A program made the translations under genes and the position numbers. From an uncultured Gammaproteobacteria bacterium (GTDB lineage Bacteria; Patescibacteriota; Patescibacteriia; DYHP01), in NCBI GenBank assembly GCA_964525225.1, contig CAZGDX010000002.1, positions 1 to 59,435 on the forward strand: DNA of 59,435 nt. The letters are read 5' to 3'. How positions within the stretch are numbered: the stretch's first letter is position 1; each line of letters starts with the position of its first letter. The notes under the pieces are model-generated. The model did not search any database and was not told where the DNA came from. It was given only the letters and a program-made list of their open reading frames with translations. Shown in pieces: positions 1-51,523 of this stretch.

Positions 1-59
1 AAAATTTCGTCTTCTTTAACTTTATATTGTTTGCCTCCAGTTTTTATAATTGCGATCAT
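1..59 (-). CDS. rplU: 50S ribosomal protein L21, N-terminal fragment (gene runs off the left edge)
   Basis: Minus-strand ATG at 59-57 followed by MIAIIKTGGKQYKVKEDEI, the conserved L21 N-terminus. Truncated, so absent from the ORF track. Confidence 0.6.
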   Translation of the reverse strand, partial: MIAIIKTGGKQYKVKEDEI

Positions 60-196
60 ACCCAGTATATCAACTTCCAGAATTAAGCGTCTTGTAGATA
101 GTTCTATCTTGTTTGGCGCAATCTGGAAAATTAATAAATTATAATCATTTTAAGTTTATACGCCCGACACAACTGGAAGTTGTATTACTGGGCATA
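57..196. repeat. Start-codon-abutting hairpin element, copy E1 (CATA-CCCAGTA...TACTGGG-CATA family)
   Basis: Direct CATA at 57-60 and 193-196. Arms 60-80 and 173-193 are complementary except for a 3x3 internal mismatch. AT-rich loop of about 92 nt. The left CAT is the rplU start codon. Confidence 0.8.
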
Positions 197-4674: not shown

Positions 4675-6615
4675 TTATTGTTTTATTGCCGAATAAATTT
4701 CATAATTTCCATCGCGATTATCGGCATAAATTATATGATAATTGCCATTCAAAACCGCGATTGACGGCTCAACCGAAAGCCCGTTTGAATTAGAGACATT
4801 TTGTTCCGCGATTAAAATTTTTCCGTCGGAATCTATTTCCATAAAATAAATCTCCGAATTGGTTTTGTCGGCCGAACCGCGGTAGTCCGCCCAAACAATA
4901 CCGAACTTGTCTCCGTTTTTAACAATTTTAGGCGATTCCGAATCTCCGCTTGTTTTTGTGGTCAGACGGATTGCGTTGCCGACCTTATCCCCAACCGAAC
5001 TCAATCTCTGATAGTAAATTTCATAATGCCCGCTTGAAGAATCGGCAACTTTTTCCTGCCAGACAATCCCATAATTCAAACCATCCCAATAAATTGCCGG
5101 ATTTGTTGATTCTTCCGAGGTTTCGGTTATTCTTTTTTCTTCTCCTCCCAAAACATTTCCTTGTTCATCATTCCGTAAAAAATAAATATCGCTTTGTCCA
5201 TTTCTGCTGTCCGCCCAAACTGACACGTATTCTTCATTGCCCCAGACAACTTCCGGTTTAAATTCATCCGATAAGGTAATTACCAATTTCGTATTATCTC
5301 CGATAAGTTGCCCTGTTTGGCTGATTTTTTGATAATGCAAAGACCCTTTTGTAAAATTGTAATCCGCGCCCGCGTTTGAATCCCACCAAAAAATTCCAAA
5401 ATCACTTCCGCTCCAAACAATTTTTGGATTTTTCGCGTGGCCGATACTGCTGGCAGAGACAGTTTTTTCCACAAACTGACGTCCGCCATATGCATCCAGC
5501 CGGACAAAATAGATTCTTCTGCTGGTTATCTTGAAATCTTCCCAAGCAATTCCAAAATCAAGACCGCTCCATGCAATTGATGGGTCTGTGGATTCGTTGC
5601 TGTTGTAAGATGCAACCGACGGGCCGACGTTTAATTTTCCGTCATTCCCAATAATTCCGAATTTTATCTCATCAATATTGCTGCTGGAATCATCTGTCCA
5701 GACGGCGCCCAAATTATCCGCGGAAGCAAAAACAGACGGATTTTTTTGGCGGAAAAAAGAGCCGGTTAAATTATAATTTCCCCATCCGTCAAGGGTGGTA
5801 AAACTTAACTCTTCACTTTCTTTTTTTAAGCCATCCGCGGTTTCGGCGATTATTTTGTAATAATAAGTCGTTTTTGGCAAGAGATTTAAAAGCGAAACGT
5901 TTTGCAATGAAAGAAAACCGGTTAAAGAAACTTTTACGGGCGCAATCTCGTTAAGCGGTTTGTCGCTATATTGCAATTCGCCCTTTGCCGCCGAATTGGT
6001 TTGCCAGCTTATTTTCGCGGCAGATGAAGTTATGCCGGTTGCCGACGCGCCGACTATGCTTAAACCGCAAATGATTGAATCGGTTACGCATTGCAAATTT
6101 TTGTTATCATTTATCGTCGGCGCGGAATTTTTTTGAGTTTCCGCGTTATAATCGCTTGCCGAAACCACATCCGCGCCAACCGAGTAATTGGTAAAAAAGG
6201 CGTCAGGGATATCTTCTATTTTTTCATTCCAATCCGCGCCATACAAAGAAATAGCCAGCGCTTCTGTCTTAACCCAACGTAAAATTCCGCCTTGCGCTAC
6301 CGCGTAAACCTTTGGGTCTGTCTGAATTTTTACCATTTTTATGCCCGGTCTGTAAGTAACATTCCCGCCGATTTGAATTGTTGCCAATTCTTCATCGGTA
6401 ATTGTTTTTACCGTGGAAAAATCGGAATACCATGTCTTATAAGTTTTTTCATTTGGAAAAACATATCTTTTCCCGTCGGCTCCGTAATAATAAACCGCCG
6501 GCTGACTTGCTTTTATCAAGTCGCCGGACATTATTGATGCAGCCGACGCGTCTCCGGCCGGAAAAATAAAAAACAATAATGAAAAAATCATTAAAAGTGG
6601 AAGTATTTTTTGCAT
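4675..6615 (-). CDS. Secreted protein with an FN3-like domain and about 8 W-x-D/IY beta-propeller-like repeats
   Basis: 646 aa. Signal peptide ...PAGDASA. FN3-like segment (ISWQTNSAAKGELQY...TYYYKI). Repeated P.I.W.G..FGI.W.D....IY units. Confidence 0.6.
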   Translation of the reverse strand: MQKILPLLMIFSLLFFIFPAGDASAASIMSGDLIKASQPAVYYYGADGKRYVFPNEKTYKTWYSDFSTVKTITDEELATIQIGGNVTYRPGIKMVKIQTDPKVYAVAQGGILRWVKTEALAISLYGADWNEKIEDIPDAFFTNYSVGADVVSASDYNAETQKNSAPTINDNKNLQCVTDSIICGLSIVGASATGITSSAAKISWQTNSAAKGELQYSDKPLNEIAPVKVSLTGFLSLQNVSLLNLLPKTTYYYKIIAETADGLKKESEELSFTTLDGWGNYNLTGSFFRQKNPSVFASADNLGAVWTDDSSSNIDEIKFGIIGNDGKLNVGPSVASYNSNESTDPSIAWSGLDFGIAWEDFKITSRRIYFVRLDAYGGRQFVEKTVSASSIGHAKNPKIVWSGSDFGIFWWDSNAGADYNFTKGSLHYQKISQTGQLIGDNTKLVITLSDEFKPEVVWGNEEYVSVWADSRNGQSDIYFLRNDEQGNVLGGEEKRITETSEESTNPAIYWDGLNYGIVWQEKVADSSSGHYEIYYQRLSSVGDKVGNAIRLTTKTSGDSESPKIVKNGDKFGIVWADYRGSADKTNSEIYFMEIDSDGKILIAEQNVSNSNGLSVEPSIAVLNGNYHIIYADNRDGNYEIYSAIKQ

Positions 6616-6758
6616 ACCCAGTATATCAACCCAGTAGCATAACCTTCGGTTCGCTACCGGGCTTCGCTTTCAGATGTTTAAAAGCGGAGTGAACGATAGT
6701 GAGCGGAGTCCAGTATAAAAGCGTTAGCTTTTTATACTGGGTTGTATTACTGGGCATA
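6613..6758. repeat. Start-codon-abutting hairpin element, copy E2
   Basis: Direct CATA at 6613-6616 and 6755-6758. Outer arms cccagtatatcaac / gttgtattactggg are identical to E1. Fills the gap between the stop at 6762-6764 and the start at 6613-6615. Confidence 0.85.
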
Positions 6759-6761
6759 ATC

Positions 6762-7691
6762 TTAATCAACTAAAATTTTTAAATCTTTTATTGAAATTAT
6801 CCTGTTTTGATTATCCACAAGTCGACCCGAGATATCATATGTTCCTTTTTCCATTATAATCGGTCCTAGGTCTATCCATAAATCGTCGCTTGGCATCATC
6901 TTGTCTATTTGATTTCTGTAAATTTTATCCCCAACCTGCAAAATAAATTCTCCTGAAAAAAATTTGCATTCGTCATCCCTCCGTTTTATGTGCGCCCGGA
7001 TGTAAAAAGGGTCATCCGCCTTCGGCAAAGTTTTCGCGTATAAACTTTCAATCCAGATGTTGTAAAGCTTTTCGGAATCGGAAAGAAGTATTTTCTCTTC
7101 CTGATTTTTAGCAGCTTCTTCCTCGGCTTTTTTATCCTCTATCGCCGCTTCCGCCCTTTTTATCTGATAAACTATTATCTCTTTTACCGGCTCTGACGCG
7201 TTTTCAATTATCATATTTGATAATTTTTCAGCGGCCGCGATTCCATTTTCAATAATTGTTTTTGTTTCAACAGGCGCCGATTCTTGCGCCACCGCCAAAA
7301 CTTCTTTTTGCGCCAAAATTTGCTCGCTCACCGCTTTTTCCCATCCGGAAGCGTCTTCGCCGGCTTCCTTTATTTTTTCAATTTGCTTTATCGCTTTTGA
7401 AAAATAATTTTCGTTCTGTTCGTAAACTTTTGCTAAAAGATTTGTTTTGTTTTTGTCTTCCAAATCTTTCAATTCGCCTATTTTTTCTTTTGAAAATTCC
7501 AATATTTTTTCAAGTTTTTCATCCGGGCTGTTCAAAAACGCGAGTTTCAGACGCTCAAATAAATTATCAAAAAAATAAATGCCATTATCCGCGTTTACTC
7601 CTGCCGGCGTTATAGTTGAAAATTTGTAAACAGAAAAACAAACTATAAACGCGCCCGCGACTACAAAAATAATTAAGCGCACGCTTGACAT
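6762..7691 (-). CDS. Hypothetical membrane-anchored coiled-coil protein
   Basis: 309 aa. N-terminal TM helix, E/K-rich helical middle, beta-rich C-terminus. No family recognised. Confidence 0.5.
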   Translation of the reverse strand: MSSVRLIIFVVAGAFIVCFSVYKFSTITPAGVNADNGIYFFDNLFERLKLAFLNSPDEKLEKILEFSKEKIGELKDLEDKNKTNLLAKVYEQNENYFSKAIKQIEKIKEAGEDASGWEKAVSEQILAQKEVLAVAQESAPVETKTIIENGIAAAEKLSNMIIENASEPVKEIIVYQIKRAEAAIEDKKAEEEAAKNQEEKILLSDSEKLYNIWIESLYAKTLPKADDPFYIRAHIKRRDDECKFFSGEFILQVGDKIYRNQIDKMMPSDDLWIDLGPIIMEKGTYDISGRLVDNQNRIISIKDLKILVD

Positions 7692-9034: not shown

Positions 9035-9108
9035 TGGCAGGGGCGGTAGGAATCGAACCCACGATAAAGGTTTTGGAGACCCTTGTGATACCATTTCACC
9101 ACGCCCCC
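9035..9108 (-). tRNA. trnW: tRNA-Trp (anticodon CCA), CCA end encoded
   Basis: Cloverleaf folded by hand: acceptor GGGGGCG/CGCCCCT, anticodon arm AGGGT-CTCCAAA-ACCTT, T arm GTGGG-TTCGATT-CCTAC, discriminator G. Confidence 0.9.
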
Positions 9109-9161
9109 ATCATCAATTTATATTCTTAGCTATTTTACCTCTTTTTTCGCCGATTGTCAAT

Positions 9162-9180
9162 TACAAGGACCGTCCTTGTA
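9162..9180. repeat. REP-like palindrome copy 1
   Basis: tacaaggaccgtccttgta: 9-bp arms with a 1-nt centre. Confidence 0.9.
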
Positions 9181-9807
9181 TCATAAATTATCCATCAATA
9201 AATGCTCTATATCCTTTCTTTCTCTTATAATTTTATAACTATCATCCACAAATTTTGCGAACTCTAAACTATTTTTAAATTGATCTAAAATAATACTCTT
9301 TTGACACAAATCGCTGTTTATATCCGATTTTATGAATTCCCCATAACTGCTCCATTGGTACTCTACCGGGCTCTTTACTATTCCGGCCACAGCTGGATTT
9401 TGATGGATATAGGCGCAAAGCCACAATAAATATTTATCAGTATCAATCGTTACTTGTTTAAATTTCGCTTGAAATACGTGACCGCTTTTTTGATATTTTT
9501 TATTAAAATACATGGAATAACTGGTGCAAATTCTTTGTAAAAGTTTGCTTGTGGGAATATCTGTGTTTTGTCTTATTAATAAATGATAATGATTTGGCAT
9601 CAAACAATAGCAAACAAGCGAAAAAGAATTTGATGGCAACGAACGCATTCTGCTCAAAATTTTATCCGGAAATAAATTTTGTTTTAATTTCAAAAGAAAA
9701 AAATTAAAATCTTCCTTGCACAGAAAGATCTTTTCTTTGTTATTACTTCTATTATAGATATGATAATAGGCACCCTCTCCGAATTGTTTATAATCTCTAT
9801 TTTTCAT
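9181..9807 (-). CDS. REP-associated tyrosine transposase (RAYT) / IS200-like Y1 HUH transposase
   Basis: 208 aa. YHIYNRSN..., HUH motif in CLMPNHYHLLIRQ, catalytic Tyr region CAYIHQNPAVAG. Confidence 0.8.
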   Translation of the reverse strand: MKNRDYKQFGEGAYYHIYNRSNNKEKIFLCKEDFNFFLLKLKQNLFPDKILSRMRSLPSNSFSLVCYCLMPNHYHLLIRQNTDIPTSKLLQRICTSYSMYFNKKYQKSGHVFQAKFKQVTIDTDKYLLWLCAYIHQNPAVAGIVKSPVEYQWSSYGEFIKSDINSDLCQKSIILDQFKNSLEFAKFVDDSYKIIRERKDIEHLLMDNL

Positions 9808-9811
9808 AAGT

Positions 9812-9829
9812 TACAAGGACCGTCCTTGT
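9812..9829. repeat. REP-like palindrome copy 2
   Basis: tacaaggaccgtccttgt. Confidence 0.9.
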
Positions 9830-9870
9830 TCTTAACTACTCTAACTCAAAAACTTTAATTCGTCAAAATT

Positions 9871-9897
9871 TAATTACAAGGACCGTCCTTGTAATTA
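9871..9897. repeat. REP-like palindrome copy 3 (extended arms), overlapping the stop codon of the next gene
   Basis: taattacaaggaccgtccttgtaatta. The last 3 nt form the TAA stop of the 509-aa ORF. Confidence 0.9.
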
Positions 9898-12212: not shown

Positions 12213-12995
12213 TTACGCCCGCTTTCCTAATTTCTTTAATCTTATCTCAAAATCTTTTATTTTTTGATTTTCCGGGTTGACTTCGCGAAGTTTGTCCAGC
12301 GCATTCCGCGCCACGCGATAATTCTTTCCCATTATACCCACTTCTATTAAAAAATCAAGATGTTTCGGATTATTCGGCTCAATTTCAAGCGCTGTTGAAA
12401 GATATTCTATCGCTTTATCAATATCTCCCAGCCCAAGCGCGGCTTCGGTTAAAGAAACATAAACCGAGGCCTTTCCCGGATTTAATTTGGCGACAAATTC
12501 AAATGTCTCTTTTGCTTCCTTAAATTCTTTTTTATTAAGATACACATCACCTAAACCTTCATAAGACGCCGAATTTTTATAATCTAGACCTATTGCCTGA
12601 AGATATTTTTGCTCCGCCTCTTTCCAATTTTCATCTTCAACCAGCTTTTCCGCTTCTTCAAGCAATGTTTCCAGTTTAACGTCCGGAGCCGCTTCTTTTT
12701 TCGGTTTCATTTCTTTATATTGCTTTTCCAAATGAAGCGCGCGGTCATAGATTTTAATTGCCCTGCTTTTTATAATTCGCCCCAGCGGCGATAATAATTT
12801 TATCAATCCCAAAAACCACTTGCTACGGATTCTTTTCAGACGCTTAACCAAAATATTCTTTTTGGTTTGGGCTTCGCGTTCCGACTTTACCGTTTCAACT
12901 TTAATAATGGAAAGTTGGGGAAATTTTCCGACAATTATAAAACCGATTACGCCCGAACTTATTATGATAAGCGACCAAGCCAAGTAAGATAGCAT
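12213..12995 (-). CDS. Membrane-anchored TPR-repeat protein
   Basis: 260 aa. N-terminal TM helix. C-terminal TPR-like repeats (W.EAEQKYLQAIGLDYKN..., AKETFEFVAKLNPG..., AIEYLSTALEIEPNN). Confidence 0.7.
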   Translation of the reverse strand: MLSYLAWSLIIISSGVIGFIIVGKFPQLSIIKVETVKSEREAQTKKNILVKRLKRIRSKWFLGLIKLLSPLGRIIKSRAIKIYDRALHLEKQYKEMKPKKEAAPDVKLETLLEEAEKLVEDENWKEAEQKYLQAIGLDYKNSASYEGLGDVYLNKKEFKEAKETFEFVAKLNPGKASVYVSLTEAALGLGDIDKAIEYLSTALEIEPNNPKHLDFLIEVGIMGKNYRVARNALDKLREVNPENQKIKDFEIRLKKLGKRA

Positions 12996-13013
12996 AAATT
13001 AAATCCTAACGTT

Positions 13014-13093
13014 GTCATCCCGAGCCGTAGCCGAGGGATCCCTTAAACATTATCGAAGTGATTCCTCCACTCACTACGTTCGATCGGAATGAC
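13014..13093. repeat. REP/BIME-like doublet element A (gtcatYccga...tcggRatgac family)
   Basis: Starts gtcatcccgagccgtagccgagggatccc and ends gattcctccactcactacgttcgatcggaatgac. The 10-nt termini are complementary. It is the reverse-orientation relative of element B. Confidence 0.8.
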
Positions 13094-13109
13094 ACGGGGT
13101 AAAATTGAC

Positions 13110-18018: not shown

Positions 18019-18035
18019 AATTAAAAAATAATTTT

Positions 18036-18153
18036 ATCATTCCGACCGAACGAAGTGAGCGGAGGAATCGCTTCGATAACCTTTAAGGGATCCCTCGACT
18101 CCCGCCCGCCACGCTATCGCTGGCGATTAGCGGGCGCGGTCGCTCGGGATGAC
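18036..18153. repeat. REP/BIME-like doublet element B
   Basis: atcattccgaccgaacgaagtgagcggaggaatcgcttcgataacctttaagggatccctcga...cgctcgggatgac. Shares the core with element A and has a longer right module. Confidence 0.8.
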
Positions 18154-18169
18154 AAAGTATATATTGAAT

Positions 18170-18718
18170 TTATATCGTCATTATTTCTTTTTCTTTTTCT
18201 TCCCCAAGCGTTTTTATCTTTTCATTATAATTTCTGGTCATTTCGTCCAGCTGGTCTTGAAGGCGAAAACGTTCGTCCTCGGCGATTTCGCCGTCCTCTT
18301 CGGCTTTTTCAATTTTCCCTTTTATTTCATCGCGAACATTACGCATTGCCATTTTTGCTTCTTCCATCTTTTTGCCCATAACTTTTACGAGTTCTTTTCT
18401 ATTTTCTTCGGTAAGCGCGGGCATAGCAATGCGGATTTTTGGACCGTCCACTATCGGATTCAAACCAATTCCGGCCGCCTGTATGCCTTTTTCAATATTC
18501 TTAAGAACCGATTTGTCCCACGGTTCTATGATAAGAGTGCGGGAATCCAAATTCTGGATGCTCGCCAGTCCCTTTATTTCCATTTTGGCATCATAGGCGT
18601 CGCAAATAATATCCTCCACCAGTGCCGGAGTGGCTCTGCCTGTGCGCAATCCTCCGAGCTCTTTTCTTAAAAAATCCAGAGCTTTTTCAAAGTTTATTTT
18701 GTATTCGTTTAAGTTCAT
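18170..18718 (-). CDS. frr: Ribosome recycling factor
   Basis: 182 aa. LRTGRATPALVEDI..., IEPWDKS, NPIVDG..IRI..P.LTEE.R.ELVK. Confidence 0.93.
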   Translation of the reverse strand: MNLNEYKINFEKALDFLRKELGGLRTGRATPALVEDIICDAYDAKMEIKGLASIQNLDSRTLIIEPWDKSVLKNIEKGIQAAGIGLNPIVDGPKIRIAMPALTEENRKELVKVMGKKMEEAKMAMRNVRDEIKGKIEKAEEDGEIAEDERFRLQDQLDEMTRNYNEKIKTLGEEKEKEIMTI

Positions 18719-18729
18719 ATTGCAACGAT

Positions 18730-18836
18730 GCCATTCCGAGCAACGGCGAGGAATCCCTTAAAGATTCTCTTTTTGTTTAATGTTTAGTTAAGCGATTCCT
18801 CCACTTCGCTCCATTGGTCGCTTCGGTCGGAATGAC
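18730..18836. repeat. REP/BIME-like doublet element C
   Basis: gccattccgagcaacggcgaggaatccc ... gcgattcctccacttcgctccattggtcgcttcggtcggaatgac. Two cattccga..gaggaatc modules in inverted orientation. Confidence 0.8.
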
Positions 18837-41449: not shown

Positions 41450-42442
41450 TTACCTGTCTATCTGGAAACTATTCAACAACATCTCAAAAGTTCTTTTATA
41501 ATTTATTTCTATTTTTGTGCCGATATTATAGGAAATCACATAGACCTCTCCGTTTCTTGTAAAATATGCCGAAAAGCCATCGGGACTTTTTACTCCGTCA
41601 AGCCCGTTTTTGGTCACAAAGGTCTGAATTTCACCGGCTTTTATACCCGGCGCCTGTTCCAAATACCATGAAATTATCGGCAAATTATTCGGATTTTCTT
41701 CAACTATAATGGTCACAAATTCTCCTGTGCCCGAATTTATAATCGTTCCGTCCGCGCCTCCGCTTCCCAAACCGCCGATGGTCCAGCTTTTCGGATAATA
41801 AATCTGATAATTTTCAATTTCATTTTTATAATTTTTGACCGCTCCGGTGTCAATTAATTTTTCGGGCGAAGTTCCGGCCGGATTGTAAAGATGAAATACT
41901 TCGTGGCCATCCAAAAATCCATCCAAATCGGTATCAGGATTTGAAACTACGGTGCCAAAAACCTCTTCTTCAATATCAGTTAATCCGTCGCCATCAGAAT
42001 CCAGACCGCTTCTCACTCCTTCTTCTTCAACAGGCGTGGAAGTCGCCGAAGTTTCTTCAGCGGTTGTATCCGCAGTTTCTTCTTCCTTCGGAATCACTTC
42101 GGTAATTGAAGGTATGACCGGAATATTTTCTTCTGGCGGAACCGGAATTTGCGCTATTTGCTTTGGCTTTGGCAAAACAAAAAAATAAATCGCCGCTCCT
42201 CCGGCAACAACAATAAAAATTCCCATGGCAATTGCCGGAATTAACGGAAACTTTTTTGTCTTTACCGCGGAAGCTCCGGGCGCGGGCATTGGTTTTTGAG
42301 ACACGACGGTTGTTTTTACATTAGCTTCTTCCGGTGTTTTACTGTCAGGCAAAATACCTAAAAATTTTTCAGGCATTACAAAAATCTTCGGCTGTTTCCC
42401 CCCGATGTCGCCGTTCTCCATCTTTTTTTGCTCTATTGGCAT
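41450..42442 (-). CDS. Membrane-anchored surface protein with thrombospondin-type-3-like Ca-binding repeats
   Basis: 330 aa. TM helix near residue 70. DSDGDGLTDIEEEVFGT..NPDTDLDGFLDGHEV. C-terminal beta-rich domain. Confidence 0.6.
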   Translation of the reverse strand: MPIEQKKMENGDIGGKQPKIFVMPEKFLGILPDSKTPEEANVKTTVVSQKPMPAPGASAVKTKKFPLIPAIAMGIFIVVAGGAAIYFFVLPKPKQIAQIPVPPEENIPVIPSITEVIPKEEETADTTAEETSATSTPVEEEGVRSGLDSDGDGLTDIEEEVFGTVVSNPDTDLDGFLDGHEVFHLYNPAGTSPEKLIDTGAVKNYKNEIENYQIYYPKSWTIGGLGSGGADGTIINSGTGEFVTIIVEENPNNLPIISWYLEQAPGIKAGEIQTFVTKNGLDGVKSPDGFSAYFTRNGEVYVISYNIGTKIEINYKRTFEMLLNSFQIDR

Positions 42443-42570
42443 ACCCAGTAGTAGAAATTTGAGTATTCAAGTAATTTTTACTTTATACACCCTATTTCTT
42501 TACAAGTTTATTTTATCCGCCCAAATTGAACTAAAATATTTCTTCTCTCAAATTTTCACTACTGGGCATA
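42440..42570. repeat. Start-codon-abutting hairpin element, copy E3 (diverged)
   Basis: Direct CATA at 42440-42443 and 42567-42570. Arms cccagtagtagaaatttgag / ctcaaattttcactactggg with a 2x2 internal mismatch. The left CAT is the start codon of the 330-aa gene. Confidence 0.8.
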
Positions 42571-42717: not shown

Positions 42718-43455
42718 TTACTCTCCCGGCGCCGGAACTTCAAACAATTTTCCGCTTCCTTTCGGGTCATAACCATTTTTAACTTCTTCTCCGTCAAGAT
42801 AGCTATCCTGGTCCGTATCAGGGTCAAGAGGGTCGGTTTTATACACCTTGACTTCGTCTCTGTCCAATAAAGCATCGCCATCAGTATCCATATTGTTTGG
42901 GTCAGTGCCAATCATTAGTTCTTCGTCATCTGTTAATCCGTCGCCATCGGTATCGGCGGGAATAATCTCTTCCGGCTGTTCCGCATCCGTTTCCGGTTCG
43001 GGAAAAATCCCTTCGGTCTCCCGCTGTTCTCCGACCGCAGGTTGCTCTTCCGTAGCCGGTTTTACCTGCTGCGACTTTAAAAAATATCCTCTGAACAGCA
43101 CCCATCCGCCGATTCCGGCAACCGCAACAATTCCGGCCAATATCAAAACCAGTAATTTTGCCCAGGACTTTTTCGGCTCTTCAAGCATCACACGTTCGCC
43201 CGTTGGAAGCGGCAACCCGCCTGCCACGTTACCCGCCCGCAACGCATTGCTCGCATTGGCGGACAAATCGCCGGAAATCGGCGGGCGTGGTTGCGGTTGC
43301 ACCGGACGCTGAGACGCAATGTGCGATTTTTGAGGAATTCCTGCCGGAGAAACCGATGAAACGCCCGGCGCGCCGGCAGGTAAATTTACCGGCGCGGATT
43401 TATCCGTCCCGCCAAAAATATCCTCCGGTTCTTTTTTATTTTGGTCATCAAACAT
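42718..43455 (-). CDS. Membrane-anchored protein with thrombospondin-type-3-like Ca-binding repeats
   Basis: 245 aa. Pro-rich N-terminus, one TM helix, DTDGDGLTDDEELMIGTDPNNMDTDGDALLDRDEVKVYKTDPLDPDTDQDSYLDGEE. Confidence 0.6.
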   Translation of the reverse strand: MFDDQNKKEPEDIFGGTDKSAPVNLPAGAPGVSSVSPAGIPQKSHIASQRPVQPQPRPPISGDLSANASNALRAGNVAGGLPLPTGERVMLEEPKKSWAKLLVLILAGIVAVAGIGGWVLFRGYFLKSQQVKPATEEQPAVGEQRETEGIFPEPETDAEQPEEIIPADTDGDGLTDDEELMIGTDPNNMDTDGDALLDRDEVKVYKTDPLDPDTDQDSYLDGEEVKNGYDPKGSGKLFEVPAPGE

Positions 43456-43486: not shown

Positions 43487-46400
43487 TTATAACTTGGTAC
43501 ATCTTGTGGTGCAACCGTCAGTTTCAACTATATTTCCATCATCACATTGCTCCGCGCCTTCCACGCGTCCGTTTCCGCAACGTTCAACTATACAATAATA
43601 GCATCCGTCACCTCTTGTATAATTTCCATCATCGCATTGCTCCCCGCCTTCCACGCGTCTATTCCCGCAACAGTTTATAGTAATAGTCGACGAACATTCA
43701 GGATTAGCCCTAGTAAAATAACATGTAGTTGTTGTCCAATTGCATTCTTTACAACAAGTTGAAGGTGTCATATCAGGAAATCTGCACAATCTCGGGTCCG
43801 CCGGGGAGCCGGTTGTGCATGTCAAATCATTTCCGTTATCGCATGTTTCAATTCCTGTTCTTACGTAATAATCTCCGCAAATTGCTCTCTTGCAGTTCTT
43901 AACACAGCTATCAGTATTGATTGCGTTCCCATCATCGCACTCTTCTGGGCTCTGCCTTATGCCATCTCCGCAGTTTGACGTTGTCGCGCACGCTCCCCAT
44001 GTGTTCCACGTGCATGTTGAACTGCAAGTTCTTGTCTGCGTTCCCGCATATCCGGTTACAGTGCCTCCGATACCGGTTATTGAAGTTAATACCGTGCAAC
44101 TCCGCGTTTCCGAATTTCTATCGCAATCCTCGCCTGTTTCCACTATGCCGTTTCCACAAACTATTGAAGGCGGAGGCGGTGACGAAGGTGGCGGCGGAGG
44201 CGGTAAAATAGGAGTTTCAAAAGTTTCTTCTATTGTGCCGGTAACTTCGTCCTCGCTTGCCACAACCGCGCTAACCGTCAGTAATGAACAGAAACTTGAA
44301 CAATAAACACAGGACAAACCCGGTCCCGGAGTGCAACGCACGCCGTTTAACGGGCCCATATCGCATTGTTCGTATCCGATTCTGACAAATCCATCGCCGC
44401 AATACGAAGTTTTACATACGTTTGTGCAGGCATCCGCGTTATTTAAATTTCCGTCATCGCATTGCTCGCTCCCTTCTTTAATTCCATTGCCGCAACTTCC
44501 CAAAGGCAGACACGCGCTCCATGCTTCCCAACCGGTACAATCCGTTCTGCAAACCCTTGTTTTTTGTGTCATATAACCGTCAGGGTTTATCGCGCAACCG
44601 GTATTATTCGTTTCCACATTGCCGTCACACACTTCTGTTCCATTTATAATGCCATCACCGCAATAAGAACCAACTAATTCCCGGCAATCCCATGAACAAT
44701 GCCCGTATTTTCCATTTAAAGAACCCTCATCGCAAACCTCGGTCCCGATTGGCGGCCGCTGGATTTTTCCATCTCCGCAACGCAATCCAATGCCCCGACA
44801 ATCCAAACGACAATGATTATAGGTTCCATTCAATGTTCCGTCATCGCAAACTTCACTGCCGTCTTTTATGCCATTTCCGCATTTGCTTTGTATTTCCGCG
44901 CCACCCGGAACCCCGCCAGTCAAAGCGCAATAATTGCTTATTTCAGCGCCTTCCCAGTCCGGGTCAACAAATTTTAATTCATAGTCAGGGCTTGAGGTGT
45001 AAAGACGACTCATGCGCCATCCTGCTTCGGGAAATTCTAGATTATAAAATAAATTATAATTATTTCCCAAGCAATTTGAATAAAAATAAACATATGACTC
45101 CGCGGTCCATAAAAATTTTCTGCTTACCGCGTTGTAGCACGTCTCGGAATCAAAGCCATTGCAATCTCCAAGATGGTTAAGCGGATCGGACGGTATGTCC
45201 GCGCCAAGCTCTGTTGCCAAACCATTCTGCCAGGAAGGCCATTTTGAATTGGTAAAACGCGGCATATAACTGCCTGCTTCCAATAACGGATAAACCGAAA
45301 CGCAACCCACTCCTGAAGGGCAATCCGCATCCGAAGAACATACCGCGCCGAAAATTCCGCATTTTTTGTGCGAAAACGCGTAATTTCTGAATTTTTCTTC
45401 CATTTCCCTTAAATCCGAAAACCGTCTTATGTCGCGCGTAAGAGAATCTTTTAAATCCAAATCTGTTATATTTGCCGCAAAACCGATATTTTCATAAATT
45501 TGGCTAAAAATATCCTGGGCATCCGCGCCGGCATTTTGCGTATGAGATAATATATATATATTCGTATAGTAAGAAATAAAACTGAACGGCGATACTCCTG
45601 TTACCGCTCTGTTAACCGCATTCACGTAAACTGTCCTGCCATCCTGCACTGCCTCAAAACCATCAACTTCAACTTTTATCGGCGCTCCGCGAAAGCCCTG
45701 ATTTTTATACCACATTGCCGGTGAAAAATGTTCTTGATTGGCCGAAACCCGGATGCCGAGCGCATCGCCGGGTTTGCAGTTAGATGATATTCCGCAATTT
45801 ACGCGTAAAATATATTCTTTAATAATGCTTGAAATCGGCGGAGTAGTCGGAACAATACTTAAATCTGGCAAATCATCTGCTGTCCCGTCTTCGCCGGCAT
45901 CGCGGCAATAATAAATCATAAAATTGGTGCTTGAATCAATATAAGGGCTCCAACTATTCTTCACACGCGCCGGCCAAGGATTTCCGCAAATCATCACAAT
46001 AACATCGGTTTTTGCGCTATACTTTTTTCCTACGGATGACTTGCTGGAAACGCTGTCTTCCGTAATTGTGGCTGCTGCTTCCACGCGCGTTTTTCCTTTT
46101 TTAATGAGCGGCGTAAGCATCCTGACACTTGGCGTAAAACCGGACATTCTCAATAAATTCTCATCACCGTTCACCCAGCTCCATGTCCAACTATAAACTC
46201 CGGGAATAGAAAATATTTCCTGCTCTGTTCCGCCAATAATTGAAATAGCCCTGGCGCGCGCGCTTTTGGTCTTAAAATCAACAAAACTTATGGGCGAACC
46301 CGGAGCCATCGCGATTTTATCTATGGTGCAAATATACGCGCCGGTAGTAAAATATGAAGAAAAATTTCTATACATTGCCACCCCGTCTTTGCTAAGCGCG

Positions 46401-49400
46401 CCGGTTTTAGACGCGTCATACGGATTCGCATCCCCGAGAATTGATATTTTATAACGTTTATCTCGTGTTAGCGCGGTATCCGGCACAAACATTAAAGTTG
46501 TTTTTTCGTCGTTATTTATTATGGTTATCTGACCCTTGCGCTTACAATATTGTGAAGACATAAAATCGGTTCCGGCCGGACACTCGCTTCCTTCCGACGG
46601 TTCAAGCAAATAAAAATTTTCCCGCAAACTTTTTTCATCCATCTCCCGGCTAAAATCCACTATAACAACCGAATTTCTGCAAATTGACGTGCTGTTGTTT
46701 GACGGAGTAACCGTTTCCACCACAGGTCTTGCGGCGCAACACCCGCCATTTCCGCATCCGATTGCGGATATGTTTGCGCCGCAATCCGAATCTGTTTTGC
46801 ACACGCACATCACTTCTAAAGTTCCCGCGCCGGAAACTCCGCTGGCAGAAGCCGTTATTTCAGTTTTTCCGCCGCTTCTCGCCACCGCGGTTTGCAAAGG
46901 GTCTACTTTTCTGTCTCCGGAAGGAGGATTTGGAAATTCACACTCTTCACCGGTTTCCAAATCGGCCGCAGTCGCGCCATTACCGCAAACAGAACCGTAT
47001 TTTACCAAAGAACCCTCATTCAAACATCGCGAATCGCATCCATCGCCGTTTAAAATATTTCCATCGTCGCAATCCTCGCCTTTTTCAATATTTCCATTTC
47101 CGCAACAATTTGCCGCGCCCTCTTTGGCGCAAGGATTTTTTCCTTCATTCAGACAATCCGCGTCGCATCCATCGCCGTTTAAAATATTTCCATCGTCGCA
47201 ATCCTCGCCGCTCTCTATATCGCCATTTCCGCAAAAAGAAATCGGACCGGAAATTGTTCCTTCGTTTAAACAATCATCACTGCACCCGTCGCCGTTTTGG
47301 CGGTTTCCATCGTCGCAATCTTCACCATCGCCTATATCTCCGTTCCCGCAAACAGACCCGCCGACCGAAGAACCTTCGTTCAGACAAATAGAACTGCATC
47401 CGTCGCCGTCTTCCGTATTTCCATCATCGCAATCCTCATACGAATCCTTTAAATTGTTTCCGCAAGTCAACGCGTTTCCTTCGTATAAACACCGCGCGCT
47501 GCATCCGTCGCCGTCTTCCGTATTTCCATCATCGCAATCCTCGCCTTTTTCATTTGACCTGTTTCCGCAAACGGGAATTCTAGGCGTTGTTCCGGTATGC
47601 AAACACAAATTACTGCATCCGAAAACAGTTTCTGAACGCGGCAAAACATCTAAAAGCGCGCCTCTGCTCGTAAAAAAATCCGCGACCGACAGAACAGAAG
47701 ACGACCACAGCCAATCATAATTTGTCGCGACAAGACGTTGTCCTTTCGGATTGCACTCATCCGGCGCGCCTATTGCCGCGACATTATAATTTTTTGTTTC
47801 TCCCACAAACCGCAAAATCGCCTGTTGGGGTTCCAAATTTACGTTTGAAATAGCGCAAGGTTCGCTTGAATCGCGTGTTTTGAAAACCCAGGAATAATCC
47901 TGATTATTGACACCGTAATTTGTTTTCGTAAGTTTAATTCCCGAAGAACTTTTAACTCCGGTATTTCCTCCGCGGATAATCACGCGGTAATATGTGTTTT
48001 CCGCCAAACCGGAATGATTAAAAGTCGCAATTAAATTTTCGCCGTCATATTCAACCGCTCCTCCCAATGCCCCGTCAAATCGGCGGCAATTTTCATTCAC
48101 GCAACGTAAAACCGTAAAATTTCCGCTTCTTATAATACTTGCTCTGTTCATTGGCGTATTAAACAACACTCCGATTTCCGCGTTTACGCAAGCGGTATTG
48201 CAGGCCGGCCATTTTGAAATAATTTCCGGATCGGTAAAATCAATAATCAACTGCCCAAAATCGGAAACTTTTTCCGTTATAATTTCCGCGTTTACGCGAA
48301 GCGCCGGATCAGGCACGGTCTCGGCTAATCCTGTAGCGGTTTGCGCGGCGTCAATATTCCCATCGGGCATTTCGCCGTTTTCTCCGCCGCCAATAAGGTC
48401 ATTATTGGTTATCGTGGCTTTCGGGGTGGGGTCTCCTTTTTCCGTCGTTACCGTCCAATTCCAATCGTAAGCGTTTGAATTTAACGTTATGCAAATATCA
48501 TTTTGGTCTAAGGCCGACGCAAGATATTCGGCCGTGCCATTCTTTCTTTTTATTGTATAACTTGCGGGATCAACTGCCACGCTTCCAACTTCGCACGGCT
48601 CTGTTCCCCCCCGGGTTGAGAATCCGAAACAATACGAATTTCCGGCTCCGCACTTTTGCGCGTCTTCCGCCATATACTCGCCATAAATATCCGCTCCCTG
48701 AATTCCGGTGGTTAAATAAACATAATATTGCGACAATGGAACAAAATTTCCTCCGGCCGGTATAAATTGAAAACCATTTTCATAGGCGCTAATCAATCCG
48801 CCAATCCGCGCCAAATCTCCGCATGGTTCTCCTGCTTCTCCGGAACACTTATAAACCAAAATATTTTCATCATTTAATGTATCCCTGTTTATATTCACGG
48901 TAAATCTCACGTTTACCGCCGCGTTTATGCAAACACTGTTTCCGCCCCGCCTTTTATTCCATGGAGACGGCGAAGGCGAAGCGTTTTCCCGGCATTCTTC
49001 CACAACCCTTGGCACGGTCGGAATAATTCCGGTTGAAAACCGCCAAACAAAACCGCCGGCTCTCGGACCGCCCGTGCAAACTTCTCCTTCTGGAACACAA
49101 ACTCCGCTGGCGCAACATTCCTCGTCTTCGCTACATCCGGATGTATTGCAATCCTGAACCGTAAAATTAACTTCATTACTTTTTTTTGCTCCGACAACCG
49201 CGCTCACTGCTCCGGTTTCCGCGCCTTGCGGAACAAAACTTGTAATAGACCTGTCGGTCCAACTCCCAATAGTCGCATTTTTATTCAGAGTAAATTGCAG
49301 TTGCCCGACCGATGTTCCAAATCTCTCCCCATAGACATCAATATTGATATTTTCCGGGCCATTATCAGGATTAAGACGGCAAATTCCCGGTCCCGCTGTT

Positions 49401-51523
49401 CCATCAGAAATTGAAAAATTTACCGACCCGCTTTCCGCGCCATCCGCGCGGACAACGCGAACTTCATAAGCTCCGTTCGCCGTATTTTCACTATTTAAGT
49501 ATTGTTGCGGAACTTTTATGGTAATTGAGTCATCGCGCCAATAATCATTGCCGCATTGCGCCGGAAAATTTGTCAAACCATTAGCTTCATCGCCACTAGC
49601 CGAACTTCTAAAAATCACCCGGCCGATATCACGCCCAAAATTCGCGCCTGAAATTTGAACATATTCTTCACGCGGACCGCTTGCCGGAGTTATCGCGACA
49701 ATTGAAGGAATAGTGCCAGCATCTCTTGAAATTGTCGTAAAATAAATAATGTTACTTTTCTCTTCACCGACAGTTATCTGAACGGGTTGCTTGCCTGTTC
49801 CGATATTCGGCACTGTGCCCTTTATTTCCGCGTTTCCCCACGATGTTGGCAAAATATCGCGCCCGCCGAGCATTGCCGAACTCTTTCTTTGCGTTGCGCC
49901 AAACTGACTGCCGGAAATAGTAATCGCATCGCCAGACAACCCGGTCCGCGGGTTAATTCCGCAAATTCCGGGGCGCGCGATGGTGTTGACATCAAAATCC
50001 GCAATCAAAAATCCGCGGTCATTATTCGTAGTATCGCATTCTCCGTTTGACGCGCAAAGCTGTATTGGACCATCTACCGCTCCGGCCGGAACCAAAACAA
50101 CAACTTCATCGTTTTGCCAAGCCGTGGAACACGGCGCGAGATTGGCATTGCGGTCATCGTCCGGGCTTGGAGTTCCCTGAAACACCACTTGTCCGACGGA
50201 AGTTCCGAAAAATTCTCCGGAAATTGTTATATAATTTCCAACTTTGCCGTTATTTGGAGAAACTTCTTCAATTCTCGGGGATGAAACACAAATACCTCCG
50301 CGACATAAACCGGAAGTGCAGTCGGCGTTTTCCACACAACTTGACCCGTCGCAAGCCCCGCATTCTTCGCCTCCGCAATCGCTTCCGTCCTCATCCGCGT
50401 CGCGTATGCCGTTAAAACAATGCGCGGGTCTGACATTTACCGAAACCGCGGATGAATTCGCGGTGTTTGTGTCAATATCGTAAGCGCGGGCTGTTATATT
50501 ATGTTTTCCGATAACCGCGCCTGTTGTATTCCATTCCGCAACGCCAATAAACTGAAGTGGCGTTGCCCCACCGGGCGCATCCGCGCCAACAAAAACATTA
50601 TCAATAAAAAATTCCACCTGCGAAACCCCGGCATCGTCAGTTACTAATGATTGCAAAATAATCATTGAATCCAAAGAAACCGATTCTCCGTTATCCGGCG
50701 CCGTGACACTTACGGACGGACCGCTCACGTCCACTAAATTTCCTGTTGTAAAATTGCCGTTGCAATCCGGAGCAAATCCGCCACAAACCAAACTTTGCCC
50801 GTTTGCATTTCTTAAATTTGTCGTAGCTCTTATATTATATGCCGTATCGGCGTCAAAGCATTTTCTGTCTTCGTTCGGAGCCGGGCAATTTGCGGACGGA
50901 GTAAATTCAATCGTGTTTCTCGCAGTAGTCAGAGTTCCGTCAACCGCGCTTCCGTCAGACGCGCGAGTAACCGTAAAATTTCCAGCAACAGTCGCGCCGT
51001 CCACTTCGGAATTGAATGTGGCGCGTACCGCGACATTTCTTATTGGCACGGCTCCGGACGGAGTAATGCCTCGCAAAACAAAATTTACCACCCCAAAACC
51101 TCCGCCTCCAACATCTCCTCCGCCTCCGACGCCTCCCCCGCCTTCCTCTGTGGCGCTAATTAAACTATTCAAAACAAACTGTGTAATTCCGAAAGCGGAC
51201 AATACTATAATAACGCCAATGATTGCGTTTTTAAGAATTTTTTTCGCGGTTTCCACCTTTTTCGGGTCGCCGGCAGCGGTCATCCATAAAAATCCGGCAT
51301 AAACTATGAGTCCCACTAAAATTATTCCAAGAAGCCCGAGTATTATACGGATAATATTCGCGATTGCGATAAAAACATTCCCAGTCGGCAATCCTGAAAC
51401 TTCGGATAACGCATCCAACCCCGCGGTTATTTGGGCGTTGACAATTCCGAATACCGCAAAAGACATCGCCACAACCGCAACGAGCATTAAAACTTTTTTA
51501 AGTTTTTTTCCTCCGGATATCAT
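43487..51523 (-). CDS. Giant (2678-aa) surface protein: pilin-like N-terminal membrane module, Ig/IPT domains, two blocks of CGNG...DCDDGN cysteine-rich repeats
   Basis: Single uninterrupted ORF. Signal peptide plus two TM helices (...YAGFLWMTAAGDPKKVETAKK...), Gly-rich linker, four IPT/TIG-like units (e.g. PRIEEVSPNNGKVGNYITISGEFFG), five tandem CGN..GEDCDDGN..GDGC..CL.EG repeats, a poly-Pro linker, and further Cys repeats to the C-terminus. Confidence 0.85.
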   Translation of the reverse strand: MISGGKKLKKVLMLVAVVAMSFAVFGIVNAQITAGLDALSEVSGLPTGNVFIAIANIIRIILGLLGIILVGLIVYAGFLWMTAAGDPKKVETAKKILKNAIIGVIIVLSAFGITQFVLNSLISATEEGGGGVGGGGDVGGGGFGVVNFVLRGITPSGAVPIRNVAVRATFNSEVDGATVAGNFTVTRASDGSAVDGTLTTARNTIEFTPSANCPAPNEDRKCFDADTAYNIRATTNLRNANGQSLVCGGFAPDCNGNFTTGNLVDVSGPSVSVTAPDNGESVSLDSMIILQSLVTDDAGVSQVEFFIDNVFVGADAPGGATPLQFIGVAEWNTTGAVIGKHNITARAYDIDTNTANSSAVSVNVRPAHCFNGIRDADEDGSDCGGEECGACDGSSCVENADCTSGLCRGGICVSSPRIEEVSPNNGKVGNYITISGEFFGTSVGQVVFQGTPSPDDDRNANLAPCSTAWQNDEVVVLVPAGAVDGPIQLCASNGECDTTNNDRGFLIADFDVNTIARPGICGINPRTGLSGDAITISGSQFGATQRKSSAMLGGRDILPTSWGNAEIKGTVPNIGTGKQPVQITVGEEKSNIIYFTTISRDAGTIPSIVAITPASGPREEYVQISGANFGRDIGRVIFRSSASGDEANGLTNFPAQCGNDYWRDDSITIKVPQQYLNSENTANGAYEVRVVRADGAESGSVNFSISDGTAGPGICRLNPDNGPENINIDVYGERFGTSVGQLQFTLNKNATIGSWTDRSITSFVPQGAETGAVSAVVGAKKSNEVNFTVQDCNTSGCSEDEECCASGVCVPEGEVCTGGPRAGGFVWRFSTGIIPTVPRVVEECRENASPSPSPWNKRRGGNSVCINAAVNVRFTVNINRDTLNDENILVYKCSGEAGEPCGDLARIGGLISAYENGFQFIPAGGNFVPLSQYYVYLTTGIQGADIYGEYMAEDAQKCGAGNSYCFGFSTRGGTEPCEVGSVAVDPASYTIKRKNGTAEYLASALDQNDICITLNSNAYDWNWTVTTEKGDPTPKATITNNDLIGGGENGEMPDGNIDAAQTATGLAETVPDPALRVNAEIITEKVSDFGQLIIDFTDPEIISKWPACNTACVNAEIGVLFNTPMNRASIIRSGNFTVLRCVNENCRRFDGALGGAVEYDGENLIATFNHSGLAENTYYRVIIRGGNTGVKSSSGIKLTKTNYGVNNQDYSWVFKTRDSSEPCAISNVNLEPQQAILRFVGETKNYNVAAIGAPDECNPKGQRLVATNYDWLWSSSVLSVADFFTSRGALLDVLPRSETVFGCSNLCLHTGTTPRIPVCGNRSNEKGEDCDDGNTEDGDGCSARCLYEGNALTCGNNLKDSYEDCDDGNTEDGDGCSSICLNEGSSVGGSVCGNGDIGDGEDCDDGNRQNGDGCSDDCLNEGTISGPISFCGNGDIESGEDCDDGNILNGDGCDADCLNEGKNPCAKEGAANCCGNGNIEKGEDCDDGNILNGDGCDSRCLNEGSLVKYGSVCGNGATAADLETGEECEFPNPPSGDRKVDPLQTAVARSGGKTEITASASGVSGAGTLEVMCVCKTDSDCGANISAIGCGNGGCCAARPVVETVTPSNNSTSICRNSVVIVDFSREMDEKSLRENFYLLEPSEGSECPAGTDFMSSQYCKRKGQITIINNDEKTTLMFVPDTALTRDKRYKISILGDANPYDASKTGALSKDGVAMYRNFSSYFTTGAYICTIDKIAMAPGSPISFVDFKTKSARARAISIIGGTEQEIFSIPGVYSWTWSWVNGDENLLRMSGFTPSVRMLTPLIKKGKTRVEAAATITEDSVSSKSSVGKKYSAKTDVIVMICGNPWPARVKNSWSPYIDSSTNFMIYYCRDAGEDGTADDLPDLSIVPTTPPISSIIKEYILRVNCGISSNCKPGDALGIRVSANQEHFSPAMWYKNQGFRGAPIKVEVDGFEAVQDGRTVYVNAVNRAVTGVSPFSFISYYTNIYILSHTQNAGADAQDIFSQIYENIGFAANITDLDLKDSLTRDIRRFSDLREMEEKFRNYAFSHKKCGIFGAVCSSDADCPSGVGCVSVYPLLEAGSYMPRFTNSKWPSWQNGLATELGADIPSDPLNHLGDCNGFDSETCYNAVSRKFLWTAESYVYFYSNCLGNNYNLFYNLEFPEAGWRMSRLYTSSPDYELKFVDPDWEGAEISNYCALTGGVPGGAEIQSKCGNGIKDGSEVCDDGTLNGTYNHCRLDCRGIGLRCGDGKIQRPPIGTEVCDEGSLNGKYGHCSWDCRELVGSYCGDGIINGTEVCDGNVETNNTGCAINPDGYMTQKTRVCRTDCTGWEAWSACLPLGSCGNGIKEGSEQCDDGNLNNADACTNVCKTSYCGDGFVRIGYEQCDMGPLNGVRCTPGPGLSCVYCSSFCSLLTVSAVVASEDEVTGTIEETFETPILPPPPPPSSPPPPSIVCGNGIVETGEDCDRNSETRSCTVLTSITGIGGTVTGYAGTQTRTCSSTCTWNTWGACATTSNCGDGIRQSPEECDDGNAINTDSCVKNCKRAICGDYYVRTGIETCDNGNDLTCTTGSPADPRLCRFPDMTPSTCCKECNWTTTTCYFTRANPECSSTITINCCGNRRVEGGEQCDDGNYTRGDGCYYCIVERCGNGRVEGAEQCDDGNIVETDGCTTRCTKL
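47010..47590. repeat. Tandem 105-129-nt coding repeats (five cysteine-rich modules) with long identical DNA stretches
   Basis: gcatccatcgccgtttaaaatatttccatcgtcgcaatcctcgcc occurs at 47036 and 47165. gcatccgtcgccgtcttccgtatttccatcatcgcaatcctc occurs at 47396 and 47501. Confidence 0.85.

Follow-up and report, generated by a model that had tools for sequence, protein, structure and literature searches.

A 146-nt hairpin element, termed E2, lies exactly on the start codon of a gene for a 646-aa secreted protein in a 59,435-nt stretch of DNA (contig CAZGDX010000002.1 of assembly GCA_964525225.1, positions 1 to 59,435; hereafter the window) from an uncultured bacterium labelled as Gammaproteobacteria and placed by GTDB in the Patescibacteriota. 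Two further copies, E1 and E3, lie in the same window. On the mRNA strand an AUG stands at both feet of the hairpin; the upstream one is called AUG1 and the downstream one AUG2. The relevant genes and features are the following.

6613-6758, minus strand: E2, whole element, 146 nt, a hairpin on the start codon of the 646-aa gene.
6755-6758, minus strand: upstream TATG direct repeat of E2, the original position of the start codon (AUG1, 6757-6755); empty orthologous sites hold one TATG.
6748-6754, minus strand: 5' terminal box of E2, CCCAGTA, the outer 7 bp of the inverted repeat.
6631-6747, minus strand: interior of E2, which folds; homologous interiors with compensatory changes are found at loci L094 and L030.
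6617-6630, minus strand: 3' arm of E2, GTTGATA-TACTGGG, including the TGA (6628-6626) that closes a 43-codon open reading frame (ORF) begun at AUG1.
6613-6616, minus strand: downstream TATG of E2, whose ATG (6615-6613) serves as the start codon for the 646-aa secreted protein; the orthologues share this methionine.
4675-6615, minus strand: host gene of E2, 646 aa, with an fn3 / purple-acid-phosphatase-N domain and, by eye, a signal-peptide-like N-terminus.
6762-7691, minus strand: upstream host gene, 309 aa, DUF5667; in relatives it stops 4 nt ahead of the 646-aa gene.
57-196, minus strand: E1, 140 nt, on the start codon of a gene read as rplU (ribosomal protein L21).
42440-42570, minus strand: E3, 131 nt, on the start codon of a 330-aa gene; the sites at the orthologous loci L225 and L226 are empty.

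On the forward strand the left end of E2 reads CATA (6613-6616, with CAT at 6613-6615 corresponding to the ATG), CCCAGTA (6617-6623) and TATCAAC (6624-6630). The right end reads GTTGTAT (6741-6747), TACTGGG (6748-6754) and CATA (6755-6758), followed by ATC and by TTA (6762-6764), the TAA stop of the 309-aa ORF. On the mRNA strand the stop is followed by GAT and then by the element in the order TATG, CCCAGTA, ATACAAC, about 110 nt of interior, GTTGATA, TACTGGG and TATG. Three local hairpins form in the interior; a nested CCCAGTA...TACTGG hairpin is among them, as is a CTCCGCTCACT..CGTTC module. No occurrence of the 22-mer arm is expected in shuffled sequence. A first-pass annotation of this DNA, made from the letters alone, had described CATA repeats at 6613-6758 and an element filling the entire TAA-to-ATG gap, and re-reading of the sequence agrees with it. 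The annotation had also described inverted arms of about 20 nt; inverted arms are present, but instead of one continuous repeat they consist of the 7-bp box, a 3-nt ATA/ATA mismatch and a further helix in which ATACAAC (6747-6741) opposes GTTGATA (6630-6624). Folding of 6613-6758, which the annotation had proposed, gave a very stable hairpin far beyond shuffles. Folding energies of the three window hairpins as RNA are -60.4, -46.5 and -37.1 kcal/mol (z of -8.4, -7.8 and -6.1), and none of 200 shuffles was equally stable. E2 also folds on both DNA strands (z about -5.4). Within its 11-bp basal stem AUG2 is paired, through U-G, A-U, U-A and G-U pairs next to the GC-rich box.

Orthologues of the 646-aa gene at 78% and 61% identity each have a DUF5667 gene immediately upstream. 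At these loci the element is absent, the stop-start spacing is 4 nt, and the junctions read TTGATTAAGACTATGAAAAAAA (L221 and L222) and TTGATTAAAATTATGAAAAAAA (L223) with one TATG each, that is, TTGATTAAGAC-TATG-AAAAAAA and TTGATTAAAAT-TATG-AAAAAAA. The empty site with a restored tight stop/start junction that had been predicted is thus found in orthologues. Likewise, the two loci orthologous to E3 (L225 and L226) read TTTATCCTATTTT-TATG-CCAATAGAG with a single TATG, so that a target-site duplication opposite an empty site, as is expected of a miniature inverted-repeat transposable element (MITE), is seen for E2 (L221 to L223) and for E3. At other loci, adjacent tandem copies have a single TATG in common. 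Because related species have one TATG at the E2 and E3 junctions, E1, E2 and E3 are read as insertions that duplicated TATG. For E2 the comparison shows an insertion that is absent at the orthologous sites of related species and that left (T)ATG on both sides, with the gene retaining an ATG at the 3' foot of the hairpin. The empty sites come from orthologues that are 61-78% identical; an empty E2 allele of the same species gave no exact match in a metagenome collection, and an exact-protein look-up for the E2 locus returned two contigs only, both with the same filled arrangement.

E1, E2 and E3 have identical 11-nt ends and read, on the mRNA strand, TATG-CCCAGTA...TACTGGG-TATG, with the last ATG as the real start codon. 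All three are without an ORF and measure 131-146 nt, and a structure-aware scan for any ATG-box...box-ATG hairpin found exactly these three copies in the 59 kb. Alignment of their interiors was attempted and yielded no homology; only the ends are shared. The ATG of E1 opens MIAIIKTGGKQYKV, which by eye is presumably the N-terminus of ribosomal protein L21. The ATG of E2 coincides with the start of orthologues of 646-652 aa, and the N-terminus MPIEQK at E3 is kept in six orthologues. The claim that all three copies abut a start codon is therefore borne out, with orthologues supporting the starts at E2 and E3. In the protein database the annotated starts lie too far downstream, by 8 codons at 6592-6615 (638 versus 646 aa) and by 7 codons at 42422-42442 (323 versus 330 aa). 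The elements thus seem to mislead gene callers, and the orthologues show the ATG at the hairpin foot to be the conserved start. At about 180-329 of locus L224, a hairpin of another kind, about 145 nt long with arms of roughly TTGAAAGTCTG / CAGAATTTTCAA, lies just upstream of the start codon that E3 occupies. Start codons may be a niche common to several element families.

Scanning one genome per species (185,579 species) with the pattern CATACCCAGTA-N100-130-TACTGGGCATA returned at least 116 loci and, with the window, about 140 copies. The exact 22-nt search pattern favours intact copies with TATG flanks and does not require the presence of a gene. Most record titles among the listed loci belong to Patescibacteria lineages, of which at least 15 are named, including Andersen-, Niyogi-, Terry-, Wolfe-, Doudna-, Buchanan-, Uhr-, Jorgensen-, Kerfeld-, Moran-, Magasanik-, Lipton-, Portnoy- and Azambacteria, Paceibacterales and 'Saccharibacteria'. 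A few listed loci bear the labels Gammaproteobacteria, Bdellovibrionales or Spirochaetia, which are unverified. At least six copies lie on a single 81-kb contig (L054, L058 and L063). Among the listed matches and the window, the 3' ATG opens a long ORF in about 135 of about 140 copies. Occupied genes, which by their N-termini we take to be those for S12, S7, L14, L20, L16, S13, S19, EF-Tu, SerRS, MetK, RuvA and MreB, are among the hosts. With the elements removed, the same DNA has 396 TATG at gene starts, 931 outside ORFs and 3,986 inside ORFs by crude ORF calls. From the 396 start and 931 non-start sites, about 30% of copies would be expected on starts if insertion were at random non-coding TATG, whereas 96% are observed. 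The genome-wide tabulation of copies against start codons proposed earlier thus gives a strong enrichment. A search without fixed flanks gave 128 well-paired CCCAGTA...TACTGGG pairs, and TATG stands on either side of 127 of them. In the youngest family (Niyogibacteria, interiors 90-95% identical), four of the five compared copies lie on starts of long ORFs. Orientation relative to the gene is almost fixed, reversed arm sets of short copies being seen twice (L051 and L107). Taken together, the loci show an enormous family, with hundreds of copies across Patescibacteria, that sits almost exclusively on true start codons and in a fixed orientation.

Two Doudnabacteria loci, L036 (1-160) and L043 (minus strand; the element starts 6924 nt from that strand's start), have the upstream flank GAAAAGACT in common and element interiors that are 97% identical, and their downstream genes differ. 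This difference could reflect element-mediated rearrangement or mis-assembly.

The arms of the short copies, of which 135 were compared, are built as follows.

Positions 5-11: 7-bp box CCCAGTA/TACTGGG, fixed by the search pattern.
Positions 12-15: often mismatched, as ATA/ATA or as a G-U plus an A-C pair.
Positions 16-24: helix of about 9 bp that remains paired while its bases change, with up to four pair types per position.

At positions 16-24, 91% of pairs are Watson-Crick, versus 57% with permuted partners; the box together with this co-varying helix forms terminal inverted repeats of the kind that define MITEs. Interiors are unrelated between subfamilies but follow a common layout, with a small hairpin after the 5' arm. 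In 43 of the 135 copies a third TACTGGG-like box, confined to the sense strand, lies 30-50% of the way along the element; its reverse complement occurs in 6 of 135 (shuffles: mean 8, maximum 14). Combined -10/-35 or extended -10 promoter matches are no commoner in interiors than in shuffled interiors. The sequence TGATATACT in the right arm (56/135 copies) was considered as a promoter and rejected, since it ends 4 nt before the ATG and is missing from other subtypes; with standard sigma-70 spacing, that distance is too short for a start at the A. Rfam gave no match at the elements at the gathering threshold for the window, and none at E <= 5 for 12 loci with more than 12 copies. Stem G-U pairs (204) and A-C mismatches (186) are about equal in number, so that nothing points to selection acting on the RNA of one strand and not on the DNA, and strand-specific RNA pairing was rejected on this count.

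A translation-control hairpin had been among the first readings of E2, and these data bear on the wider possibility that the hairpins are cis-regulatory RNAs selected by the host, the stem hiding the AUG or being cut by RNase III to give a near-leaderless mRNA, with mobility serving only to spread them. The pairing of the AUG at the base of a very stable stem, the near-fixed orientation with its two reversed arm sets and the scarcity of Shine-Dalgarno-like motifs in these genomes are all in keeping with such a role, as is the sense-only third box, which might, by pairing with the 5' box, release the 3' arm. However, close relatives express these genes with no element present, the interior of one copy bears no relation to that of another, and the genes that would be served are functionally unrelated. 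Nor do the near-equal G-U and A-C counts, the weak A-skew, the interior promoters at shuffle level or the lack of an Rfam match suggest a strand-specific regulator, and this explanation is considered unlikely.

The arms also recall integron attC sites, which would here mark boundaries of gene cassettes. Like attC, the elements conserve structure over sequence: a basal box of 7 bp is followed by a spacer that stays unpaired, a second helix and a variable terminal region of 60-300 nt. In addition, TATCAAC/GTTGTAT in E1 and E2 loosely resembles RYYYAAC/GTTRRRY. That core-like motif is confined to one subtype and absent in E3 and most subfamilies. Unlike attC, the copies are dispersed and form no arrays, lie within conserved clusters of ribosomal-protein genes and are flanked by a direct repeat that the empty sites confirm as a target duplication; the enclosed ORF of long relatives, where there is one, encodes a nuclease and not an integrase (the whole window was not searched for an integrase). 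An integron origin is barely credible.

Long relatives of the hairpins enclose a GIY-YIG nuclease gene. At L047, a 320-nt copy encloses an 88-aa ORF (Pfam GIY-YIG, E = 2.8e-18), and tblastn located two further GIY-YIG ORFs in hairpins, at L020 (box CCCCGTA/TACGGGG, compensatory) and at L082 (a degraded gene). The 88-aa protein has more than 1,165 homologues, and of the best 120, nearly all that carry a name belong to candidate-phyla-radiation bacteria. The homologue alignment shows no variation in the catalytic columns (Y..YxG, R, H/N and E); the closest solved relatives are UPF0213 proteins, followed by the structure-specific endonuclease SLX1. Exact-protein look-ups and a metagenome scan with this alignment supplied 80 metagenomic loci. 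By eye, about 70 of the 80 nuclease genes occupy the loop of a hairpin measuring about 305-322 nt. In these, the neighbouring genes are on the same strand, the nuclease gene is co-oriented with the downstream gene, and the right end of the hairpin touches the downstream ATG. An automatic classifier, itself imperfect, detected arms at 72 of the 80 loci, reducing to 57 distinct elements, at least 34 of which have an ATG-containing repeat and 38 of which abut an ORF start.

The boxes of these elements vary, each with its own complement: CCCAGTA, CCCCGTA, CCCGGTA, CCAGGTA, CCGGGTA, TCAGGTA and CCTAGTA, with co-varying pairs including CCCCGTA/TACGGGG, CCCGGTA/TACCGGG and CCAGGTA/TACCTGG. The flanking repeat of ORF-bearing copies, which nearly always includes an ATG, is usually TATG, and also ATG, ATGA, ATGG or CATG; the target tetranucleotide seems to co-vary with the box. 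Copies with and without an ORF but with identical arms occur in tandem at L165, L209 and L218. Ends shared with an ORF-bearing element, a further property of MITEs, are thus seen in these tandems and in copies of about 310 nt (L047, L163 and L167). At the loci examined, the only ORF found inside elements is the GIY-YIG gene. These comparisons show that an intact 88-aa UPF0213/SLX1-like GIY-YIG gene is enclosed by arms of this kind in relatives of about 310 nt.

Further GIY-YIG genes of the group interrupt tRNA genes at their 5' end (L221, 2230-2600; L006, 1730-2200), where about 25 nt of the 5' part of the tRNA is duplicated. The same tRNA is uninterrupted in the window at 9038-9108. This duplication follows the same logic of restoring what is interrupted as the duplication of the ATG.

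E1, E2 and E3 are thus probably ORF-less, MITE-like copies of a mobile hairpin family that is widespread in Patescibacteria. A MITE whose TATG duplication rebuilds the start codon had been among the first readings of E2, and the empty sites, the shared TATG, the copies on start codons and the ORF-bearing relatives all lend it support. The GIY-YIG nuclease would act on folded or cruciform ends and mobilise ORF-bearing and ORF-less copies alike. A role of this nuclease in mobilising the elements is inferred by likeness to other ORFs that are uniquely enclosed by the ends of an element, and its SLX1-like affinity suggests that it may recognise folded ends. It would cut a short TATG target, preferably followed by C: C stands at +4 in 47% of occupied starts, compared with about 19% of unoccupied starts. 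With C at this position the target resembles the element's own left junction, TATG|CCC, which explains the tandem arrays. Nothing else is conserved around occupied sites beyond TATG and this preference.

Restriction to start codons could then follow from a short target combined with strong filtering. Copies on start codons would be harmless, would be lost only by precise excision and would persist, while other copies would be lethal or decay. Filtering is favoured over active targeting of start codons, towards which the result from the young family (four of five on starts) may lean slightly. Survival only where an ATG is rebuilt, as first suggested, remains one of two open explanations for the bias. 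Targeting of transcription starts of leaderless genes was also considered and rejected, as a -10-like box lies 4-8 nt upstream of 24% of occupied and 19% of unoccupied starts and occupied starts are not enriched for Shine-Dalgarno motifs over unoccupied ones. Around 402 unoccupied ATG starts of long ORFs (the loci of the scan plus the window), T is found at -1 in 58% and a Shine-Dalgarno-like motif in 13%. The bias for T might be initiation context or the footprint of past elements.

Several observations weigh against a nuclease-mobilised MITE family as the explanation. No GIY-YIG gene lies in the 59-kb window or in E1, E2 or E3, and the intact catalytic domain that would mark a GIY-YIG homing element is present only in the long relatives. 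The link between nuclease and mobility is an inference from sequence context, and to our knowledge GIY-YIG enzymes only hydrolyse DNA, which leaves the joining step unexplained. The short copies are not decayed nuclease genes: their interiors hold no ORF remnant, and blastx found in them no collinear similarity to the nuclease gene or to any other protein. They are therefore taken to be MITE-like partners sharing only the ends. The repeat length varies among subfamilies, from 3 to 4 nt (ATG, TATG, ATGA and ATGG), and the CCGGGTA/TACCCGG subfamily (L168, L182, L184 and L192) is flanked by TGGA, situated a few bases upstream of the ATG, and not by ATG; at L168, L182 and L184 the TGGA-flanked element lies about 10-15 nt upstream of the gene start, beside an apparent left-end remnant. 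A target of 4-5 nt cannot alone account for 96% occupancy of start codons. The decayed intergenic copies that filtering predicts were not found in numbers with a pattern that favours intact copies. Finally, re-initiation between the two AUGs, discussed below for E2, does not appear to be general across copies (22/129).

Compared with known systems, the elements most resemble bacterial MITEs such as the Neisseria Correia elements (CREE/NEMIS), ERIC and RUP. These are likewise small (about 100-150 bp), ORF-less, present in many copies and bounded by hairpin-forming inverted repeats, with short target duplications, insertion next to genes and presence or absence between relatives. In contrast to them, the present elements have the start codon itself in their target and rebuild the ATG, copies agree over no more than about 24 nt of each arm and have unrelated interiors, the partner encodes a stand-alone GIY-YIG nuclease and not a DDE transposase, and the family spans a superphylum and not a genus. 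GIY-YIG homing genes (T4 seg genes and fungal mitochondrial ORFs) share with the long relatives a small ORF between co-oriented host genes and an invaded gene restored by partial duplication, as in the sister genes that duplicate about 25 nt of a tRNA 5' end. The nuclease here, however, is an 88-aa UPF0213/SLX1-type catalytic domain without a DNA-binding domain, is enclosed by long inverted repeats and has abundant ORF-less derivatives. Hundreds of unrelated genes are occupied and not one homing site, which argues against classical single-site homing.

A different source of mobility is suggested by a gene 2.4 kb from E2 that resembles REP-associated tyrosine transposases (RAYTs; Pfam Y1_Tnp, E = 1.2e-10).

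9181-9807, minus strand: Y1 gene, 208 aa, flanked by three copies of TACAAGGACGGTCCTTGTA within 9146-9893.

One TACAAGGACGGTCCTTGTA copy ends 3-4 nt before the ATG of this gene and another begins directly after its stop. A Y1 (HUH) transposase could move REP/REPIN-type hairpins in trans, inserting them 3' of TATG in the manner of IS200/IS605, with the GIY-YIG gene as a passenger; the fixed flanking tetranucleotide and the strong orientation bias would fit such single-strand transposition. As in REP/REPIN-RAYT systems, abundant extragenic hairpins populate a compact genome and a RAYT-like gene with its own hairpins is at hand. Those hairpins, though, are of a different kind, and the Y1 gene is not flanked by the repeat under study. 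Neither a Y1 homologue nor a TACAAGGACGGTCCTTGTA hairpin is present in the other 226 loci (1.1 Mb, about 200 elements), and on this absence of co-occurrence mobilisation by Y1/RAYT was rejected. The score of the window gene against the NCBIfam model REP_Tyr_transpos (57.7 bits) is below the 80-bit cut-off, and the sole ORF found inside elements remains the GIY-YIG gene. The elements also differ from REP sequences in lying on start codons instead of in 3' intergenic positions and in duplicating their target. Movement by a Y1 enzyme is improbable.

How a gene is translated past such a hairpin can be considered for E2. AUG1 lies 4 nt after the upstream stop and opens the 43-codon ORF, which spans the whole element and ends in a UGA, the final base of which precedes AUG2 by 10 nt. 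The simplest mechanism for this copy would be a relay of termination and re-initiation: AUG1 would retain the native initiation context, so that the host gene would still be translated, and ribosomes starting at AUG1 before the 3' arm is transcribed would hold the stem open and re-initiate at AUG2. An ORF from the upstream AUG reaches within 30 nt of AUG2 in 22 of 129 copies, versus 6.4 in shuffles. By a crude measure, a Shine-Dalgarno-like motif precedes only about 13% of starts at the element-bearing loci. Alternatively, the 5' box could pair early with the internal one and so leave the 3' arm free, or RNase III could trim the hairpin.

The matching AUGs had also invited comparison with translational bypass as in T4 gene 60 or the mitochondrial byp elements, in which a ribosome at AUG1 would cross the closed hairpin to AUG2 and leave the hairpin untranslated. 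The identical AUGs are brought together by the 11-bp basal stem, and the Shine-Dalgarno motif where present, a -10 box 5-8 nt upstream or the upstream stop belongs to AUG1. Yet the AUGs match because the target was duplicated, and take-off would be from an initiation codon, with no upstream coding sequence or nascent peptide. For initiation, a ribosome requires some 15 nt of the mRNA beyond the P site, on its 3' side, to be single-stranded. The interior has no conserved signal and the ORF from the upstream AUG is variable. Of the coding gap, matched codons and nascent peptide of programmed bypass, only the matched AUGs are found, and the comparison is left without support; bypass is very improbable. 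Identical take-off and landing codons in T4 gene 60, and a hairpin between initiation signals and the codon used in the split ribosome-binding sites of T4 genes 25 and 38, are alike in function only, as the present hairpins are mobile insertions with the AUG inside the stem.

Other repeats in the window belong to a second, unrelated structured family (12994-13100, 18030-18175 and 18730-18835), which is intergenic, with ends like GTCATCCCGAGC... / ...TCGGAATGAC and the core GTGAGCGGAGGAATC. Two of its copies lie 12-20 nt upstream of start codons and one lies between apparently convergent genes. Because the CTCCGCTCACT..CGTTC module in the interior of E2 is common to this family, E2 may be composite. 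On the minus strand at 43487-51523 lies a 2,678-aa ORF packed with degenerate repeats (about 30-130 nt; families D1-D4), whose neighbours at 42718-43455 and 41450-42442 match bacterial TSP3 repeats, the latter weakly.

A full-text literature search found no published description of such an element; subscription journals were not covered, so a prior description is possible. Taken singly, MITE-like hairpins, free-standing GIY-YIG genes and gene-restoring duplications are well known. Their combination, namely a bare GIY-YIG gene within inverted repeats, abundant ORF-less derivatives, insertion on start codons that regenerates the ATG and spread across a superphylum, appears undescribed. The elements may constitute a distinct class of prokaryotic transposon that has a stand-alone, structure-specific GIY-YIG nuclease as its sole protein, actively homes to start codons and hides its insertion from translation by means of a hairpin, although this is at present doubtful. 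If true, they would amount to an 'intron' removed at translation initiation and tolerated in EF-Tu and ribosomal-protein genes across the superphylum, hidden by a structural shunt or re-initiation relay between AUGs, or by RNase III trimming to a leaderless mRNA.

The family raises the questions of how a mobile element finds, or survives only on, start codons, of whether a bare GIY-YIG nuclease can drive transposition, and of how initiation occurs at an AUG within a stem of -40 to -60 kcal/mol where Shine-Dalgarno-like motifs are few. In practical terms, starts of element-bearing genes are mis-called, and the elements may drive rearrangements and break assemblies. Patescibacteria have the smallest and most streamlined of bacterial genomes. 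If this reading holds, each such genome would carry tens to perhaps a hundred selfish hairpins on its start codons, including those of essential and highly expressed genes.

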